Source: an uncultured bacterium
Lineage (GTDB): Bacteria > Babelota > Babeliae > Babelales > Vermiphilaceae
Reading direction: 5' to 3'
Assembly (NCBI GenBank): GCA_963695335.1
Contig: OY968764.1
Coordinates: forward strand, 1,088,001-1,152,000
Length of the DNA: 64,000 nucleotides
Part shown: positions 4,270 to 56,126 of the stretch, in pieces
How positions within the stretch are numbered: position 1 is the stretch's first letter
Layout: the number at the start of each line of letters is the position of its first letter
Notes under the pieces: model-generated
Told to the model about the DNA's origin: nothing
The model's database searches: none
Seen by the model: only the letters and a program-made list of their open reading frames with translations
Translations under genes and position numbers: made by a program

Positions 4270-4339
4270 GCGCTCATCCTGAGCTTGTCGAAGGATTAAA
4301 GCGCTCGAAGATACCCTTCAACAAGTTCAGGGCGAGCGC
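4270..4339. repeat. Family A REP-like inverted pair
   Basis: GCGCTCATCCTGAGCTTGTCGAAGGA...CCCTTCAACAAGTTCAGGGCGAGCGC. Confidence 0.9.
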
Positions 4340-4373
4340 ACAAAAGATATATAAATTTAATAGAGGAAATAAA

Positions 4374-5070: not shown

Positions 5071-6066
5071 TTATCGACCTATCTCAAAAGCATTGAACTT
5101 TCTAAAACCCCTCAATGCTTTTTGATGCAATGATAACGCATCATAATGCTTTTTATATATCGCATCAAACTCGTTAACTTTATTAAAAAGAGCATTTACA
5201 AAATCTACCAATCGATCTTTTTTAAAGTGTTCTGGCGTAAACACAGAAAGTGCTTCGTCAGACATGCCCAAATTACGATATGTCGAAACCCCTAATACCC
5301 CAACAACCTTATAACGAAGAATTTTATATTGTTGTAAACTATCTTCATCTGACTTCATTATTTTAGATAATACCGTATAATCAGGAATCCGTAATGAATT
5401 AATTGTCGATGTAACTGGTACCATTCTTCCTTTATATTCTCTAAACGGATAATCTTCAGCTTTAGACTCTCCAAACAAATTAGTCATAGAAGAAAGGGCA
5501 CCAAGAGAAGTACCATGAGCATCCATATCTGACTGAGTAAGAATAACAAAAATTATATTATTTACTACCTCAATAATCTTCTTAAAAATCATTTTACGCT
5601 CTTCAGAATCAGACATTTTATTAAACGCTTCAACTAAATCATCAAGTGTTGCATCTTTTTTTAACATTTCAATGCGCTGCATTACAGTTTTATTTATCAC
5701 TTCTTGTGGCACTAATAAAAATTGTTCAACTGCAATTGCACCATTAAATTGTTCTCGTGAAGGTTTTATCAAATCAACTTTATTGTTCAAAAGATCGAAA
5801 GCTAACTTAATATTTTCAATAGAAAAGGGAACAGTAATTTCTTTTGGTCTACCACCAAGATCTCCTACCATACTTTTTACCATCTCACTATGCTGTTCTA
5901 ACCAAGCTTGATCAATTAAAATACCATTACTTGTTCCTTGCGCATAAACAAAATATTTACCTTGTTGATACTGCTTTTCACGCTCATGCAATGGATCTGC
6001 TAACAAATTTATTCCAGCAATTGTTATACATAATACCATTAATCGTCCCAATACATTCTTCTTCAT
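5071..6066 (-). CDS. Secreted protein with possible Skp1/BTB-like N-terminal domain
   Basis: Signal peptide; segment LEQHSEMVKSMVGDLGGRPKEITVPFSIENIKLAFDLL resembles Skp1/POZ (by eye). Confidence 0.6.
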   Translation of the reverse strand: MKKNVLGRLMVLCITIAGINLLADPLHEREKQYQQGKYFVYAQGTSNGILIDQAWLEQHSEMVKSMVGDLGGRPKEITVPFSIENIKLAFDLLNNKVDLIKPSREQFNGAIAVEQFLLVPQEVINKTVMQRIEMLKKDATLDDLVEAFNKMSDSEERKMIFKKIIEVVNNIIFVILTQSDMDAHGTSLGALSSMTNLFGESKAEDYPFREYKGRMVPVTSTINSLRIPDYTVLSKIMKSDEDSLQQYKILRYKVVGVLGVSTYRNLGMSDEALSVFTPEHFKKDRLVDFVNALFNKVNEFDAIYKKHYDALSLHQKALRGFRKFNAFEIGR

Positions 6067-6099: not shown

Positions 6100-6726
6100 T
6101 TATTGATATTCATTAACTGGTCTTGCTGAAATCACATCTCCATATAACAAGCTCTTGAAAAAGACGACTGGTAACATTTTTTGCGCACGTGCATTAAATG
6201 GTATTGTTGTAAAATTATTAGTTGCAGTTTTCACTCGTTTCAACGCCTGATATTTTGTTCCTTCAATACCTATTTCTGATCCATCATTTGTTGAATTAAT
6301 TGTGCTCAATTGCCCTGCTTCATAACGTTCTTTACCACGATTATAAAAATCTTTGAGCCCAATTGCTAAAATAAGATGTAATTCATCAGCCCATGCAGCT
6401 CTTTCATTAACTGGAATTGCTTCTAATGCTGCACGTATTTTCTGGGCATAATGATCAATCAATAGATCATTCAGTGCATCTTTTAAATGACTTAATGGTT
6501 GATTGTGTGTTACATAGTATTCTTTACGAGCAATGCGATCATATTTCAATTCACGAGTAGAAGCTGTTTTTTCACGCAGTTCTTTAATTTTTGCCTGCGA
6601 CCACTCAGCGGCAATCAGTTCTTTTTTGAGCTGCTCTTTAGTCATCTTGTTCTCAGAAGCTTGCGCAAACCCCACAAAAACCACCACGAGTAGTGCTATT
6701 GCGCATCTTAATCCATTATTCTTCAT
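6100..6726 (-). CDS. Hypothetical secreted protein
   Basis: MKNNGLRCAIALLVVVFVGFAQA signal peptide; GAGGGG RBS. Confidence 0.75.
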   Translation of the reverse strand: MKNNGLRCAIALLVVVFVGFAQASENKMTKEQLKKELIAAEWSQAKIKELREKTASTRELKYDRIARKEYYVTHNQPLSHLKDALNDLLIDHYAQKIRAALEAIPVNERAAWADELHLILAIGLKDFYNRGKERYEAGQLSTINSTNDGSEIGIEGTKYQALKRVKTATNNFTTIPFNARAQKMLPVVFFKSLLYGDVISARPVNEYQ

Positions 6727-6874: not shown

Positions 6875-8095
6875 TTATAACGGATCGGTCCCTTGCTCTA
6901 AAATCGCAAGATATTTTTTGTACACATATGTCCGATCCCGCTTTTTGCCCGTAATCTCTTCCACAATATTCAATTGTTGCAAACGCTCCAATGCTGTTCG
7001 CACCGTAGGTTCTGTCATCTCAAGTTCTTTTGCAAGTAAACTAACCGATACTTGCGGCAACTTTTTTAAATATTCAAAAACTTCTTCGGCTGAAAATCGC
7101 GCTTTGCCTAAACTTTCAATTGCTTGCATATCTTTTGCAAACAAACGATTAATTTTTTCTATAGTTAAAGATGCCTGCTTTGCAGTAATTGCAACACCTT
7201 GCAAAAAGAATTCAAGCCACGTTTCCCATGTACCTTGCTCTCTAACCTGCTGCAACAAGTCATAATACAATCGACGATTCTGCTTTAAATATAAACTGAG
7301 ATACAAAATAGGATCAGCAAGAAAACCGCTTTCGCATAACATAAAAATGATAAGCAATCGCCCAACTCTGCCATTCCCATCTAAAAAAGGGTGAATCGTC
7401 TCAAACTGCACATGCACCAATCCTGCCTTAATCAAAATATGATATGGACATTCTTCGTCATATAAAAATTTTTCTAAATCAGATAAACACTCTTTAAGAT
7501 ATTCAGGTGATGGAGGAACAAATAAAGCATTGCCTGGCCGTGAACCACCAATCCAATTTTGCGATTTTCTAAATTCACCCGACTTCGCCAAGGCTTCTTC
7601 GGGCAGGCCTGGTGCTTTATGCTTCCCACGTCCCCCACGCAGAAGTACGTCATGAATTTCCCGTATTAAACGTAAACTTAAAGAAAAATCTTCTTTTATG
7701 CGCTTTAATCCATACATAATCGCTTCAACATAATGCGATACTTCTTCCACATCCTCAATAGCAACCTGAGGTTTTTGCTCCCTACTTCGCCAAGGCTTCG
7801 AAGGGCGCGCGTGCTCAAATAACATCAAATCAGCAAAGGAACTTTGCGTTCCTTCTATTTGAGATGATAAAAGCGCTTCTTTGCGCACATACATATAAAT
7901 GAATAACGATTTATTTTGAGCAAATTTTACACTAGCGTTCAAATTTGCAATAGCTTCAATCGCTTGATTTAAAATAGGATATAACTTCTCTACTTCTAAA
8001 GAGATTGGTGGTAACTTTTTAGGCACATACGCTTTATAATACGCCCCCGTTATGCCTTGCTTTACATACGTCCCAATTCTCTTTTTAATATCCAT
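6875..8095 (-). CDS. fic: Fic family protein (N-terminal inhibitory motif, C-terminal HTH) carrying two 10-aa repeat-derived inserts
   Basis: HPFLDGNGRVGR catalytic motif, SSQIEG motif, GEFRKSQNWIGG, C-terminal HTH-like region. Confidence 0.93.
   Translation of the reverse strand: MDIKKRIGTYVKQGITGAYYKAYVPKKLPPISLEVEKLYPILNQAIEAIANLNASVKFAQNKSLFIYMYVRKEALLSSQIEGTQSSFADLMLFEHARPSKPWRSREQKPQVAIEDVEEVSHYVEAIMYGLKRIKEDFSLSLRLIREIHDVLLRGGRGKHKAPGLPEEALAKSGEFRKSQNWIGGSRPGNALFVPPSPEYLKECLSDLEKFLYDEECPYHILIKAGLVHVQFETIHPFLDGNGRVGRLLIIFMLCESGFLADPILYLSLYLKQNRRLYYDLLQQVREQGTWETWLEFFLQGVAITAKQASLTIEKINRLFAKDMQAIESLGKARFSAEEVFEYLKKLPQVSVSLLAKELEMTEPTVRTALERLQQLNIVEEITGKKRDRTYVYKKYLAILEQGTDPL
7578..7607 (+). 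repeat. Family B 30-nt hairpin, in frame in fic
   Basis: CCCG ACTTCG CCAAGG CTTCTT CGGG CAGG; removal restores KAPGEFRKSQNWIGG. Confidence 0.9.
7780..7809 (+). repeat. Family B 30-nt hairpin, in frame in fic
   Basis: CCCT ACTTCG CCAAGG CTTCGA AGGG CGCG; removal gives FEHEQKPQVAIEDV. Confidence 0.88.
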
Positions 8096-8107
8096 TTTTA
8101 GGTTCCT

Positions 8108-8183
8108 CTATCTTTTCGTAACTAACCTCACTAAGAAAAGATAGCACTGTAACTTTTCTTAATACAGAGTTAAAGAAAAGATA
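8108..8183. promoter_or_regulatory. Two tandem inverted repeats, putative operators in the fic/SDR divergent promoter
   Basis: CTATCTTTTC..GAAAAGATAG (8108-8144) and CTTTTCTTAA..TAAAGAAAAG (8153-8180). Confidence 0.45.
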
Positions 8184-8238
8184 AACCATAGCCTTGTGGG
8201 CGAGCATTATGCTATTTATCATAAAAAAAGGAATTCTT

Positions 8239-8968: not shown

Positions 8969-10789
8969 TTATTTTTTTATTGTTCTGATCGGCAAACATG
9001 TTTTGAGCAACTGCAATAACTGAGGCGATGTACCAGCCCAATCACGTAACATTGCATACGCTGGATCATTGTTTTGTAATGCTATAGCACCATTTTCTCT
9101 GCGCTCCATACACAACCGCTTAACCAATGATGCCACACCAAGATTTGTACATGCTTTATCTTCAATTTGAGAAAGTATCTGCTTATCTTCATATGTCAAT
9201 AAAGATATTTTAGAATGTGAATTATCTAAAAATATAAGTTCGGTACTATCATGCGAAAAACCAACACCCTTAAAACCTGCATATAATGTATCAATAGATA
9301 CTATCTGTTTATGAGTCGTTGCATCTTGTATAACTGTTTCAACATAAAGCATACCCCATTTGTTTTTAAGTGAATTACACATCAAGAATTCACCATTAGG
9401 ACTATACGCTCTATGCACTTGACTCTTTGGTTGCGACCAAAAACCAGCTTCAGGATCTTCTTTAAAAAAAGGATATCCTGAATAAAACATTTCAACAGAA
9501 TCTCCCACTTTCAGCATAGCTAATGTGTATTCAGAAGTATGAAATGCAACCTTATTGAGAGATGCAAACTCCCTACTATATTCACGATAATACGAACCAT
9601 TACCATCTGATTTGCTAATCTCTATTGAATAAAGGTCTGCAACGCCACATATTGATACCAGATAATTTCCAGAGCCTACCTGATACGTAGCAAATTTTTC
9701 TATCAATCCATCTGTTCTAAATGAGCTACGACCCGATTCTTTCTTATATGTACCTTGCATAGACCATATCTTATATACATTATCACGCCCTTCATACGTA
9801 GCTACACGCCACTCACTATTATCAGGTTCAAAACGCACACCAACAATAAAGTCAGGACTATCAACCGTAACCGATTCAATGAATGATAATCCATTCTGTG
9901 TTGTTATCGTAGAAAAAACCATGTCATGATCAGAATATGTCAGCACACCTTCAACGTCAGTTTTTGTTTTACTAAAACAAGAACCTTTAATATCTCCCTT
10001 ATGCCTAATACGTGTGGAAAATGTATCACTTGGATTATCATGATTAATGACCCACAATAAACATTGTTTATCTTGCACATCAGTAATACGATATTCATAA
10101 TTATCAATCGCGAAACAAATTGCATATGTTTGTCGGACTTTATCTCCAGTATATAAAGAAACAGGATACTGATGCGGATAGATGGTGTGGCAACTATTAA
10201 AAAACAGTGATCCCAAATAAATATTTTTGGTCAATAAATTACTCATGGTATCATGCATAGATTCTTTGAGAAACATCGACCCTTTACTATAAATCAGTTG
10301 CTCTTTAAAATAGTTACGCACATAATCTTCATCTTCATTTTTCAGATAACTTTTTATATGATTACGCAAACCATTATCGGTAAAATAAACTTCAATTAAT
10401 CGTTTGGTTACTTCAGGAACATCAAGCATCACTTTTTTACCATCTTCATTATACTGACCCGACGCTTTTATCAACAAAAGACGATCTCGCTTTGATAACT
10501 TGTTATAATAATCTGTAAACTTATCAGGTCTTACCGTCAACGCTGTATCAACTAAACATATTTCATCAGAACAGACATGTTGATATCTTGGAACAATGCC
10601 TCGTCGTTTAGTTATTCTATAATAATCCTCACAATGTTTATGCAATGCCTTCATGAACAGTAAATTTGATTTTGGAATGGAAATAACAGAAACATCTCCC
10701 ATAATATGAACAATGCCCTCATTCTTCATAGAAAAAAGGGGCGTTACCATTGTCGCCAGAATCAAGAATTGCATGCATATTTTATTCAT
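8969..10789 (-). CDS. Secreted protein with probable WD40-like beta-propeller region
   Basis: Signal MNKICMQFLILATMVTPLFS-MK; AYSPNGEFL and GFSHDSTEL blade-like motifs. Confidence 0.65.
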   Translation of the reverse strand: MNKICMQFLILATMVTPLFSMKNEGIVHIMGDVSVISIPKSNLLFMKALHKHCEDYYRITKRRGIVPRYQHVCSDEICLVDTALTVRPDKFTDYYNKLSKRDRLLLIKASGQYNEDGKKVMLDVPEVTKRLIEVYFTDNGLRNHIKSYLKNEDEDYVRNYFKEQLIYSKGSMFLKESMHDTMSNLLTKNIYLGSLFFNSCHTIYPHQYPVSLYTGDKVRQTYAICFAIDNYEYRITDVQDKQCLLWVINHDNPSDTFSTRIRHKGDIKGSCFSKTKTDVEGVLTYSDHDMVFSTITTQNGLSFIESVTVDSPDFIVGVRFEPDNSEWRVATYEGRDNVYKIWSMQGTYKKESGRSSFRTDGLIEKFATYQVGSGNYLVSICGVADLYSIEISKSDGNGSYYREYSREFASLNKVAFHTSEYTLAMLKVGDSVEMFYSGYPFFKEDPEAGFWSQPKSQVHRAYSPNGEFLMCNSLKNKWGMLYVETVIQDATTHKQIVSIDTLYAGFKGVGFSHDSTELIFLDNSHSKISLLTYEDKQILSQIEDKACTNLGVASLVKRLCMERRENGAIALQNNDPAYAMLRDWAGTSPQLLQLLKTCLPIRTIKK

Positions 10790-10874
10790 CGAAATTCTAC
10801 TCCGTTTATTACTTTGTATAATTGCATGCATAGAGTATAACATCTTCATTAAGTTATGCTCAGAATTATCTTAT

Positions 10875-11008
10875 TCCGTTCGCCCTGAGTGTTTTACGAA
10901 GTGTAACGTAGTAAAATGTATCGAAGGGTGCAAAAATATAAAGTTATTGTTATACCGCATCCTTCGATACATTTTTTTGAGGACAAAAAAACACTCAGGA
11001 CGAGCGGA
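10875..11008. repeat. Family D (family A with expanded loop) inverted pair
   Basis: CCGTTCGCCCTGAGTGTTTT..ATGTATCGAAGGGTGC ... GCATCCTTCGATACAT..ACACTCAGGACGAGCGG. Confidence 0.9.
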
Positions 11009-11023
11009 GTGGATTTTTAGGCA

Positions 11024-15185: not shown

Positions 15186-15215
15186 TATTACTTCGCTCAA
15201 GCTTCGTAGGACAAG
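15186..15215 (+). repeat. Family B hairpin, intergenic
   Basis: TATT ACTTCG CTCAAG CTTCGT AGGA CAAG. Confidence 0.75.
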
Positions 15216-20016: not shown

Positions 20017-20093
20017 GGTGGACGTAGCTCAGTCGGCAGAGCGCCAGGTTGTGGTTCTGGATGTCGTGGGTTCGACCCCCACCGTTCACCCCA
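20017..20093 (+). tRNA. tRNA-His (GTG)
   Basis: G-1, acceptor GTGGACG/CGTTCAC, anticodon arm CCAGG-TTGTGGT-TCTGG, GTTCGA, CCA. Confidence 0.96.
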
Positions 20094-20121
20094 TACTACG
20101 CTAAAGCTTCGTATGGCGCGG
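20091..20121 (+). repeat. Family B hairpin fused to the tRNA-His CCA
   Basis: CCAT ACTACG CTAAAG CTTCGT ATGG CGCGG followed by a second CCA. Confidence 0.85.
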
Positions 20122-21995: not shown

Positions 21996-22123
21996 TCCGC
22001 TCGTCCTGAGTGTTTTTGTCTTCAAAAATGTATCGAAGGATGCAACATAACAATAACTTCTAATTTTGCACCCTTCGATACATTCTACTGCGTTACACTT
22101 CGTAGAACACTCAGGGCGAGCGG
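21996..22123. repeat. Family D inverted pair
   Basis: TCCGCTCGTCCTGAGTGTTT..ATCGAAGGATGC...GCACCCTTCGATAC..ACTCAGGGCGAGCGG. Confidence 0.9.
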
Positions 22124-35178: not shown

Positions 35179-35265
35179 CGTTCGTTTACTTCGACAAGCT
35201 CAGTACGAACGGGATATAAATTTTTTTCTCTCCGTTCGTGGTGAGCCTGTCGAACCATACGAACG
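35179..35265. repeat. Family A variant pair (CGTTCG form) between convergent genes
   Basis: CGTTCGTTTACTTCGACAAGCTCAGTACGAACGG...CCGTTCGTGGTGAGCCTGTCGAACCATACGAACG. Confidence 0.88.
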
Positions 35266-36289: not shown

Positions 36290-36343
36290 CCTTCGATCCG
36301 TTTTCGCCTACGGCTTCTTCGGACTCACGCTACGTCGGACAGT
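36290..36343 (+). repeat. Degenerate family B copies, apparently one nested in another
   Basis: TCCG TTTTCG CCTACGG CTTCTT CGGA CTCA within CCTTCG...CTACGT CGGA CAGT. Confidence 0.55.
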
Positions 36344-36394: not shown

Positions 36395-36429
36395 CGCAGC
36401 CAGACGAAGCTCGTTAGAGCGAAGACTGG
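36395..36429 (-). repeat. Family B hairpin fused to the tRNA-Phe CCA
   Basis: Minus strand CCAG TCTTCG CTCTAACGAG CTTCGT CTGG CTGCG. Confidence 0.82.
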
Positions 36430-44023: not shown

Positions 44024-44143
44024 GCACCCTTCGATACATTTTTCTTCGCTTACGCTATGAAAAACACTCAGGGCGAGCGGAGTGAGAGATCTTTCTTTCC
44101 GCTCGCCCTGAGTGTTTTGTCTTCAAAACGTATCGAAGGGTGC
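44024..44143. repeat. Family D pair between convergent genes
   Basis: GCACCCTTCGATAC..ACTCAGGGCGAGCGG / CCGCTCGCCCTGAGTG..GTATCGAAGGGTGC. Confidence 0.9.
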
Positions 44144-46311: not shown

Positions 46312-46385
46312 CGCGCTCATCCTGAACTTGTTGAAGGATTAAGGCGCGCTCAAAGATATCCTTCGACAGGCTCAGGACGAGCGCG
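46312..46385. repeat. Family A inverted pair
   Basis: CGCGCTCATCCTGAACTTGTTGAAGGA...TCCTTCGACAGGCTCAGGACGAGCGCG. Confidence 0.9.
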
Positions 46386-53321: not shown

Positions 53322-53692
53322 AAAAAATAAATACGATTGCGCTCGCCCTGAACTTGTTGAAGGGTTTCTTCGAGCGCTCGAGGATATCCTTCGACAGGCT
53401 CAGGACGAGCGCGGGACTACTACTACTCATTTCTTTAACACCTCTTGCAGCGGGTCCTTATTGCATAGATAAACAAGGACACTCTCTTGCATGTCCCTGC
53501 AATTGTGATGCTGTAAGAAGAAGATATTGTATTGATTGCACTCATTTGCAAGATGCTCAGCCATTAACTGTTATTGACTCTACTCAGAAACAAATATATG
53601 GTTCAACAACAAAGGCATACATCCCTGAAGATCTAAAACATGCGCTTGAAAAATTGGCTGCTCAGTACGTTAAAAATAAATATGATGTATAA
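53318..53692 (+). CDS. Small Cys-rich secreted protein with a 25-aa repeat-derived insert in its signal peptide
   Basis: MKKINTI[ALALNLLKGFFERSRISFDRLRTSA]GLLLLISLTPLAA; CPCNC and CIDC motifs. Confidence 0.7.
   Translation: MKKINTIALALNLLKGFFERSRISFDRLRTSAGLLLLISLTPLAAGPYCIDKQGHSLACPCNCDAVRRRYCIDCTHLQDAQPLTVIDSTQKQIYGSTTKAYIPEDLKHALEKLAAQYVKNKYDV
53339..53413. repeat. Family A inverted pair, 75 nt, in frame in a CDS
   Basis: GCGCTCGCCCTGAACTTGTTGAAGGG..TCCTTCGACAGGCTCAGGACGAGCGCG. Confidence 0.92.
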
Positions 53693-53708
53693 TAATCGCT
53701 CGCACTTT

Positions 53709-53736
53709 AATCCTTCAACATGTTCAGGATGAGCGC
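53709..53736 (-). repeat. Family A arm supplying the ppsA stop codon
   Basis: rc GCGCTCATCCTGAACATGTTGAAGGATT; its TGA ends the ppsA frame. Confidence 0.8.
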
Positions 53737-56126
53737 GAGCGCATCAAAAATGATAATACTGAATCGCTATTTAATGAAAGTGAATCAATACCCTCTTTAA
53801 TTAAAAATTCAGCAATATCAGGATAATCCGATGGTGCTTGACCACAAATGCCAATATATCGTTTATTTTTATGCGCACCTTCAATTGCCATTGCCATCAT
53901 TATTTTAACTGCTTCATCACGTTCATCAAACAATTCTGCAAGAATTGTAGAATCACGATCAACACCCAAAACCAATTGTGTTAAATCATTTGATCCAATA
54001 GAAAAACCATCAAAATAACGTGCTAAATTCATCAATCATAATCACATTTGATGGAACTTCACACATCATTACAAATTCCAAATCATTTAGTCATGCTTTA
54101 ATCCATGTTTTGCCATTTCAGCTTCAACCAACTGTGCTTCTTGCACCGTGCGCACAAATGGAATCATAATTTTTATATTTTTTAAACCCATCACGTCACG
54201 CAGCGTGCATAAGGGCTGTACATTCCAATGCAAACGCTTGCTTGTAACGTTCATTGTAATAACGTGATGCTCCACGAAACCCAATCATCGGGTTTTCTTC
54301 TTCTGGTTCAAAATAAGCTACCACCAATAAGATTACGATACTCATTACTTTTAAAATCAGAAAAACGCACCGTTACTGGTCGTGGATAAAAAGCTGCTGC
54401 AATCATACCAATACCTTGTGCTAGACGTTCAACAAAAAAATCTGTTTTTTTACTGATATGCAGCAGTTATTTCATCTATTTTAGCTTTCATTCTTTATCT
54501 TTAACTTTTTCAGGATGAATAAGTGCCATGGGATGAATTTTGATAAGATTCGTGATAATAAATTCCATACGCGCAAGACCAACTCCTGCAACTGGTAAAA
54601 ATGATGTCTGAAATGCACTATCAGGATCAGCAATATTAACCATAATATCAACTGTTGGTTTGGGGATATCTGTAAGAGCTATTTTTTTAATGGTATATTC
54701 CAATTTTCCCTTATAAACAGCGCCTGTAGCGCCTTGAGAACAATCGATCGTTACCACTTCTCCAGTTTTTATTACAGCAGTTCCGTTATCAGTCCCAACA
54801 ATTGCAGGAATACCCAATTCTCGGCTCACAATTGCTGCATGGCACGTGCGCCCACCACGATCAGTAATAATACCTGCTGCACGCTTCATTGCAGGAACCC
54901 AATCAGGATCAGTCATTGTTGTAACAATAATCTCACCATCTTTAATTTTACTAATATCTTTGGCACTTTTTACTACACGTGCTATACCAGATACAATTTT
55001 GTGACCAATACTCAAACCAGTCACAATAGTTTCTTTTTTTGCACCGTTTTTTATAATATAGCGCTGTAATGCAACTTCTTTTTTACCACCATAAATGGTT
55101 TCTGGGCGTGCTTGCACAATATACAATTTCCCATCATGTCCATCTTTTGCCCACTCAATATCCATGGGTGACCAGACTTGTCCTTCGAAGCTTTAGCGAA
55201 GTAGGATTTCTTTAATTTTGAATAATAGTTTTCAATAGTAACCACGAACTGTGCGAGTTCAATAATTTCTTTATCAGTTAATGCAAAAGTATGCTGATCT
55301 TTCTTTGATACTTTTACTGTTTTTATATGGGCATGCCCATATATAATCTTTGTCTTTTTATCACCACATAATTTTTTAATAATTGGTGTAAACCCTTCGC
55401 AAGCGTGAGTTTATGCACAACAAATTCATCTGGAGTCACCAAGCCTTGTACAATTGATTCACCAAGTCCATACGATGCATCAATCATCACCACATCTTTA
55501 AAACCAGTTTCTGTATCCAATGAAAATGCAACTCCAGAAACTGCACCATCAGAACGAATCATTTTTTGTACACCAATAGAAAGCGCAACTTTAAAATGAT
55601 CAAATCCTTGATCAATGCGATACATAATTGCACGATCAGTAAATAGAGATGCTATACTTTTTTTGCATGCATCTAATAACTTTTCATCACCAACCACATT
55701 TAAAAATGTATCTTGTTGACCAGCAAATGATGCTGTGGGTAAATCTTCAGCTGTTGCAGAGGAACGAACCGCAACATCAATATTATGTTTCTTATACCGA
55801 GTGGAAAGTTCATGATACGCTTGCAGAATTTCTTGTGCCAAATCATCTGGCATTGTTCCACTCATAATAAGTTTACGAATTTCAGAACCAACTGTATGCA
55901 CGTTTTTTGTACCATGCAGTTGCTTCATAACTGATTTCATTTTTGCAAGCAACTTATTTTCATTAATATAGTGCCAATACGCATCTGCTGTTATGGCAAA
56001 TCCCATAGGCACTCTAATCTTTTGTGATGAGAGTTGCGTTATCATCTCACCCAATGATGCATTTTTTCCACCAACCTGGCTAACATCAGCAAGACGTATT
56101 TCATCAAAATATTTTATATAGCGCAT
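53724..56126 (-). CDS. ppsA: Phosphoenolpyruvate synthase, with many apparent frameshifts in 54.0-55.4 kb
   Basis: [66 protein letters not shown] found in successive frames. Confidence 0.92.
55177..55206 (-). repeat. Family B 30-nt hairpin, in frame in ppsA
   Basis: TCCT ACTTCG CTAAAG CTTCGA AGGA CAAG = [10 protein letters not shown], between YYSKLKK and PMDIEW. Confidence 0.88.

Follow-up and report, generated by a model that had tools for sequence, protein, structure and literature searches.

The window, by which we mean the whole 64,000-nt stretch of DNA analyzed, belongs to a 1.37 Mb genome in one contig (G000). It carries a fic gene on the minus strand (ORF 6875..8095) encoding a SoFic-like protein of 406 aa with Fic_N, Fic, and HTH domains. 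SoFic is the best solved relative of this protein, and the catalytic motif HPFLDGNGR is intact. None of the three neighboring ORFs (5071-6066, 6100-6726, and 8969-10849, all on the minus strand) has a Pfam match. Two copies of a short hairpin repeat lie inside fic, and five further copies are present in the window:

7578..7607, + strand: 30-nt hairpin copy with arms CCCG/CGGG and tail CAGG, a 10-aa addition to Fic near residues 163-172
7780..7809, + strand: 30-nt hairpin copy with arms CCCT/AGGG and tail CGCG, a 10-aa addition to Fic near residues 96-105
15186..15215, + strand: degenerate intergenic copy
20091..20120, + strand: copy with the CCA end of tRNA-His as its left arm; arms CCAT/ATGG
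36297..36327, + strand: 31-nt copy, inverted partner of the tRNA-Phe copy, with tails facing
36396..36429, - strand: 34-nt copy with a longer central hairpin, left arm the CCA end of tRNA-Phe, arms CCAG/CTGG
55177..55206, - strand: 30-nt copy in a frameshifted PEP synthase gene, common to the intact ortholog of comparison genome G005 and absent in comparison genome G008

An earlier, sequence-only reading had proposed the two fic copies, and both their positions and their 30-nt lengths are right. Deleting them in silico returned the predicted peptides, FEHEQKP and KAPGEFRKSQNWIGG. The same reading expected clean 10-aa gaps on alignment with Fic orthologs, and we found such gaps at both insert sites in nearly all of 80 homologous loci (75 at one site, where 5 rows were unaligned, and 78 at the other, where 2 rows were unaligned). 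The empty site in one locus (L001) matches the fic DNA junctions at exactly 30 nt. Among the 119 closest Fic protein homologs, 3 have an insert at the residue-163 site (7578-7607) and none has one at residues 96-105. The predicted model places each insert in a low-confidence stretch between helices (residues 96-112 and 156-178), and both are read in minority frames of the family.

We also looked for the assembly chimeras that had been named as a possible refutation. Contigs of two public runs from two studies (X1 and X2), 90-95% alike to the window, span 7749 to 8199 and are ungapped at 7780-7809. Other public contigs extend 9 nt into the copy at 7578-7607, where read support is partial, and three other Fic proteins carry the insert at that site. 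Among the fic substitutions listed (40 of 70 rows, from contigs that need not be one organism), 34 of 39 are synonymous, and the gene therefore looks to be under purifying selection.

Of 26 homologs, 4 have an insert at the residue-163 site, and these do not group as one clade; four changes are needed on the tree, and a single clade of the four is rejected (p-AU 8e-86). The copies at this site in the window's genome and in genome G010 share their arms and a TTCT variant, and the four fillings could represent one gain spread by recombination, or precise losses. In addition to this copy, the G010 fic gene (L471:1971-2260) has an inverted pair of the repeat, 57 nt or 19 aa long, placed in frame inside the catalytic motif (HPFLDG-NGR). 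Because this pair interrupts the motif, the in-frame state of an insert is no proof of tolerance, and inserts are not always harmless.

The repeat unit reads arm(4)-N-CTNC-GYY RA RRC-TWYG-N-arm'(4)-CAvG over 30 nt, with arm pairing that ends after four bases. The core matches the window's genome exactly at 42 sites and with one mismatch at 38; the reversed genome gives 0 and 1. A filtered structural set holds 111 copies in G000, 28 in G005, and 76 in G008; the unfiltered sets (133, 37, and 91) include false matches. The arm covariation claimed for the window extends to the family, since Watson-Crick pairing holds at the four arm positions in 161, 168, 159, and 160 of 184 distinct 30-mers, values reached by none of 2000 shuffles (which ignore relatedness). 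In the same 30-mers, the variable-base pair and two central pairs also covary, and the middle base of the internal loop shows no covariation. Variants with a longer central hairpin occur mainly at tRNA ends. As DNA, the repeat is predicted to fold weakly (-3 to -4 kcal/mol), and the RNA fold is more stable. The earlier reading set coding copies of 30 nt against non-coding ones of about 30-35 nt; in the unfiltered set, however, most non-coding copies (51 of 79) also measure 30 nt. The copy at 55177-55206, put forward as a third coding copy, does measure 30 nt, but its host PEP synthase gene is split by frameshifts. That gene (53739-56126, minus strand) is broken into several ORFs and its G005 ortholog is intact; gene fragmentation overall is not worse in G000 (21/394) than in G008 (34/357).

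With 111 copies of a 20-40 nt imperfect palindrome, often in inverted pairs, the family has the features of a REP in the broad sense. Close neighbor pairs are tail-to-tail in 11 of 23 cases. Of the 191 phylum genomes, 135 have the core pattern (4 control matches in all), as do 10 of 50 other genomes, of which one is G007 again and one is probably a member of the window genus; the remainder include records titled Opitutia, Sphingomonadales, Nitrospiraceae, and Rickettsiaceae. It also occurs in 94 viral-contig stretches. In genome G058, four tandem copies with a period of 31 nt were seen (C12:27113-27221). Rfam recognizes only tRNAs in the window, and searches of the repeat at seven cassette loci gave no match at E values up to 1.

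Next, we examined where copies insert. In the window's genome, of which about 90% is coding, 43 of the 111 copies lie inside 36 ORFs (crude ORF calls). The three genomes G000, G005, and G008 together have 87 copies in ORFs, 68 of them in sense orientation and 77 with an ortholog; in comparisons among these genomes, 45 of the 77 correspond to a gap of 8-14 aa, most often 10. Genes with copies include ftsZ, tsaD, valS, pheT, a PcrA-like helicase, pepA, and trxB (32 orthologs were scanned for names, and 20 had none at that cut-off). All six repeat-bearing genes that were checked, ftsZ and tsaD among them, are single copy. Multiple copies are not peculiar to fic, as ten ORFs contain two or three. 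In tsaD, copies of opposite orientation occupy one loop in G000 and G005, and G008 has none. Copies also insert into one another and into repeats of a second family (family A, below), and self-nested 30-nt insertions are matched by empty sites.

Sequence flanking the inserts is less conserved than the whole proteins (0.47 vs 0.65 at 28 sites, lower in 19 of 28, p 0.004), and it is likely that selection keeps ORF inserts in loops and linkers. One of the six frames accounts for 52 of the 79 30-nt ORF copies, some of them common to several genomes, against 33% expected from target preference and stops (p 3e-8). It reads S/P-x-F-A-K-A-S/T-x-x-R/K. Covariation supports the earlier proposal that the DNA structure is the conserved unit, but this frame preference does not fit its corollary that the peptide is irrelevant. 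Likewise, the picture of a mobile REP- or RPE-like micro-element that adds 10 residues in loops holds up, while there is little need for filtering by frame, given a default unit of 30 nt, or 10 codons, everywhere.

The main landing place of the repeat is the tRNA 3' end: directly after 14 of the 35 tRNA/tmRNA genes in G000, the left arm of a copy is the CCA end. Target preference is weak, with a pyrimidine at +1 in 56 of 66 ORF sites. We considered whether the arms are copied from the target and rejected this, as the first arm base equals the first post-tail base in 75 of 142 cases against 56 expected, an excess that a shared pyrimidine preference explains. No excess of target-site duplication was found in 204 contexts, where direct repeats occur as in shuffles. 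A 7-nt direct repeat surrounds the element in 3 of 75 viral contexts (L323, L330, and L343), unlike the genome copies. There is no replication-strand bias (56:77, p 0.08; 46:45).

The sequence-only reading had suggested a search for mobilizing genes flanked by the element. A RAYT or reverse transcriptase partner did not materialize, as RAYT is above cut-off in only 1 of 191 genomes and no reverse transcriptase was detected in G000. The remaining suggestion, a GIY-YIG gene, proved fruitful. The window's genome has three stand-alone GIY-YIG genes and one long one. Two of them, outside the window at C1:205100 and C1:895128, encode proteins of 81 and 80 aa whose best solved relatives in the PDB are Slx1 nucleases, and an inverted repeat pair lies upstream of each. 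In the Atlas, their relatives are labeled GIY-YIG family proteins and come from several phyla; residues Y6, Y18, G20, R28, H32, and E64 of the GIY-YIG domain are invariant in 19 members. Upstream of the second gene (C1:894800-895100, L083) we observed a tandem duplication of about 155 nt, with an inverted repeat pair in each unit and the first copy placed after a decayed tRNA-like end.

Repeats adjoin Slx1-like genes well beyond this genome. A copy within 350 nt upstream or 200 nt downstream is found at 21 of 30 Slx1-like genes vs 3 of 22 other single-domain GIY-YIG genes, counts that omit loci whose gene the search pattern missed. In a set of 83 metagenome and viral loci, in which metagenome matches have 50-63% identity and GC content ranges from 27 to 70%, the repeat is near the gene in 58, compared with 2 of 83 reversed controls; 105 repeat matches lie near the gene and 1 in 60 kb farther out. 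An inverted pair is present at 35 of the 83 loci, and at 42 an antisense copy, distinct from the tRNA-attached copy, precedes the gene by 24-272 nt. At 51 of 120 nuclease loci, two of them duplicated, a copy sits at a tRNA or tmRNA end, representing 23 tRNA types as well as tmRNA, and the order is often tRNA end, inverted pair, gene. In genome G082, the only two core matches flank the nuclease gene. Part of the adjacency of repeat and nuclease could stem from a shared preference for tRNA ends.

In a tree of 85 proteins, built on 78 columns with every second metagenome locus, the repeat is present at 52 of 64 members of the Slx1-like clade and at 4 of 21 outside it. The clade splits with support of 100/98 from L112 and L132, whose motifs suggest the cd10448 type, and it shares 31% identity with L132 over 65 columns. 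Nuclease homologs occur in 121 of the 191 phylum genomes, with 0 to 10 genes per genome. Repeat and nuclease are found together in 110 genomes, the nuclease only in 11, the repeat only in 25, and neither in 45, kin among these genomes not being independent. The 25 of 135 repeat-bearing genomes that have no nuclease match count against the nuclease as mover. At 1e-6, none of five further genomes with copies (completeness not given) has a nuclease match, and one of these, G236, has a different small GIY-YIG gene 134 nt from a copy. Three nuclease homologs were found in viral contigs, and annotated plasmids and phages gave no match. None of 80 viral repeat copies has a GIY-YIG gene within 500 nt, which is what dispersed copies should show.

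A second repeat accompanies the other GIY-YIG genes. The family A palindrome, CTTCGAYA...YTCAGG.GARCG, has 225 matches in G000, 21 of them in the window, and 0 in the reversed control. Positions in the window include, among others:

4293-4340: family A
10900-11010: family A
17154: family A
22038-22120: family A
26951: family A
35188-35255: family A
44028-44138: family A
46336-46385: family A
53362-53735: family A

Family A lies beside 15 of 22 GIY-YIG genes of the other clade vs 1 of 30 and 1 of 76 Slx1-like ones. We label this clade UPF0213-like, in line with UPF0213 hits in the PDB. Its member in the window's genome, at C1:565584, is flanked by family A repeats with nested 30-nt copies. Indeed, family A repeats often hold hairpins of the 30-nt type inside them, and 16 of the 111 G000 copies follow a family A arm. 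Family A and its GIY-YIG clade possibly form a second undescribed repeat-nuclease pair.

We favor, at a probability of roughly 0.6, the reading in which the 30-nt hairpin is recognized and spread in trans by the small Slx1-like GIY-YIG nuclease. The autonomous form would be the cassette of tRNA end, inverted pair, and nuclease gene. By analogy with SsnA at NTS repeats, the nuclease would attach to the hairpin in single-stranded DNA and cleave next to its tail, on the strand that has the CNTG tag 5' of the stem. Host repair would then paste a repeat copy at a new site. Insertions of a 10-codon unit into an ORF would be in frame by default, and selection would subsequently favor loops and linkers and the frame that gives a Ser/Ala/Lys-rich peptide. 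The anatomy of the repeat, its insertions, the covariation, and the linkage to the gene are observed; binding by the nuclease, choice of strand, cutting, and the pasting step are inferred. A fuller form of the proposal makes the 80-aa protein the equivalent of a transposase for a widespread selfish cassette that docks at the CCA ends of tRNA/tmRNA genes and pastes 30-nt hairpins into genes; this we hold tentatively, at slightly under even odds. GIY-YIG nucleases are not known to have a strand-transfer step, which counts against mobilization, and the lack of replication-strand bias counts against a single-stranded DNA mechanism, which might give one. The weak predicted folding of the DNA also speaks against this reading.

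The alternative that survives best, although we consider it unlikely, is that the nuclease is the cognate binder but has been domesticated, for example to trim incoming or branched single-stranded DNA, with the repeats spread by host recombination or by template switching at hairpins. The demonstrated role of SsnA (PMC11893778) is restriction of transforming DNA, and a domesticated enzyme would suit the absence of target duplication, the weak target preference, the rare variants shared by same-site fic copies, and the persistence of repeats in the 25 genomes without a nuclease match. However, copies at 23 tRNA types and tmRNA and a gene number of 0 to 10 per genome are what a selfish cassette would show, and homologous recombination would hardly yield exact 30-nt units at unrelated empty sites.

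We find it considerably less probable that the element acts and moves as RNA, folding over the CCA end of tRNA precursors as a processing or termination signal and being reverse-transcribed. The left arm as the CCA of 14/35 tRNA/tmRNA genes, the sense orientation of 68/87 ORF copies, the stabler RNA fold, and the missing replication-strand bias all point that way. Against it, the 94% complete window's genome, the one genome searched, has no RVT_1 (reverse transcriptase) match, target duplication is not in excess in the 204 contexts, no Rfam family covers the repeat, and antisense copies stand directly before the nuclease gene.

There is little chance, in our view, that a Y1 HUH transposase (RAYT or IS200 TnpA), able to cut and join hairpin-tagged single-stranded DNA without target duplication, moves the repeat as a REP. 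HUH chemistry does fit an anatomy of a 4-nt foot, an imperfect hairpin, and no duplication, and G000 has three identical IS200 TnpA genes. These elements (C1:369218, 574578, and 1166633; L085-L087) have ends of their own, though, and the scarcity of RAYT (1/191 genomes), the repeat-rich genomes G008, G009, G033, and G170 with no match even at E 0.001, and the GTAG foot in 0/111 copies speak against such a mover. Mobilization by the other single-domain GIY-YIG clade, the partner of family A, or by either clade, seems to us just as improbable. The 16 copies nested behind a family A arm, the arrangement at C1:565584, and the G236 case would fit it, but the repeat marks few genes outside the Slx1-like clade (4/21 vs 52/64 inside) and family A shows the reverse pattern. 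An assembly artefact can be dismissed, given inserts on independent contigs, same-site inserts in three other Fic proteins, and a core pattern in 135/191 genomes with 4 control matches in all.

Returning to the Slx1-like nuclease as the mover, in-frame inserts alone are ordinary; the new part is the tRNA-anchored repeat-nuclease pair. CGTC REPs were concluded in PMC3733652 to be without a dedicated transposase. The pair makes the movement of RPE-like and CGTC-type palindromes directly testable: the candidate enzyme has 80 aa, its proposed 30-nt substrate is well defined and covaries naturally, empty sites are clean, certain targets recur, and there is a putative autonomous form anchored at tRNA ends. 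The pair also gives an abundant clade of "GIY-YIG nuclease family protein" a likely substrate and would explain recurring peptide inserts (SFAKAS, EALAK, LRQGF) in proteins of small-genome bacteria. If the reading is true, this would be the first GIY-YIG protein shown to mobilize a REP-like element. It would add to Ssn a second family of single-stranded DNA nucleases specific for both sequence and structure, would steadily supply essential proteins with new 10-residue loops, and might provide a new single-stranded DNA tool.

In the open-access literature (PMC3733652 without its consensus figures, PMC11893778 without its supplements), we found neither this repeat described nor any account of repeats next to bacterial GIY-YIG genes of the Slx1-like kind, and literal core strings and one peptide gave no match there. 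The closest precedents for the inserts are RPE-1 to -7 and the intragenic GTAG/CGTC REPs, which likewise lie in frame in conserved genes, on either strand, in several frames, and in exposed loops; here there is one exception, inside a catalytic motif. The comparison with RPEs had been drawn before with small size as the distinction. In-frame insertion is indeed known, but small size is not new, since PMC3733652 describes intragenic REPs that encode 7-10 aa and in some cases occur two to a gene, as well as RPE-4 singles encoding 9-10 aa. PheT, tRNA synthetases, and a DNA helicase are also targets in Rickettsia, where net inserts among the rows listed in PMC3767692 are 68-192 nt vs typically 30 nt here; RPE-1 is about 150 nt (PMC10969869). 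Motif and peptides set the present repeat apart, as its consensus lacks the ATGAC motif of RPE-4/6/7 and the peptides ALAK, LRQG, PSPRL, and AKAS do not appear in the intragenic table of PMC3733652. Unlike RPEs, it also comes with a candidate enzyme attached.

REP/REPIN elements with RAYT are similar in having inverted pairs of short palindromes beside an enzyme gene and scattered non-autonomous copies, and differ in the GTAG foot and RAYT gene seen here in 0/111 copies and 1/191 genomes; the partner here is a GIY-YIG protein, not an HUH one. Like MITEs, the repeat is non-autonomous, non-coding, and would be moved in trans, but it is much shorter and without target-site duplication.

Another close system is NTS/SRM with Ssn (SsnA, cd10448). 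As described in PMC11893778, SsnA-type GIY-YIG proteins cut single-stranded DNA beside CGTC-type hairpins that flank their genes; restriction of incoming single-stranded DNA was shown, and mobilization of the repeats was only hypothesized. Both systems have a hairpin of about 30 nt that is oriented, bears a short unpaired tag, and occurs in many copies per genome, and in both the repeat flanks a small single-domain GIY-YIG gene (here at 21/30 and 58/83 loci). However, the SRM pattern is found in none of the 111 copies and has 0 matches genome-wide in G000. The tag here is CNTG rather than CGTC (CCTG in 27, CTTG in 18, and CGTG in 15 of 111), the nuclease is Slx1-like, and the arms are short and freely variable with compensation. 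Anchoring at tRNA ends, which goes unmentioned in PMC11893778, is characteristic of the present repeat, and 43 of its 111 copies lie in ORFs, compared with the 2% given there for NTS in N. meningitidis.
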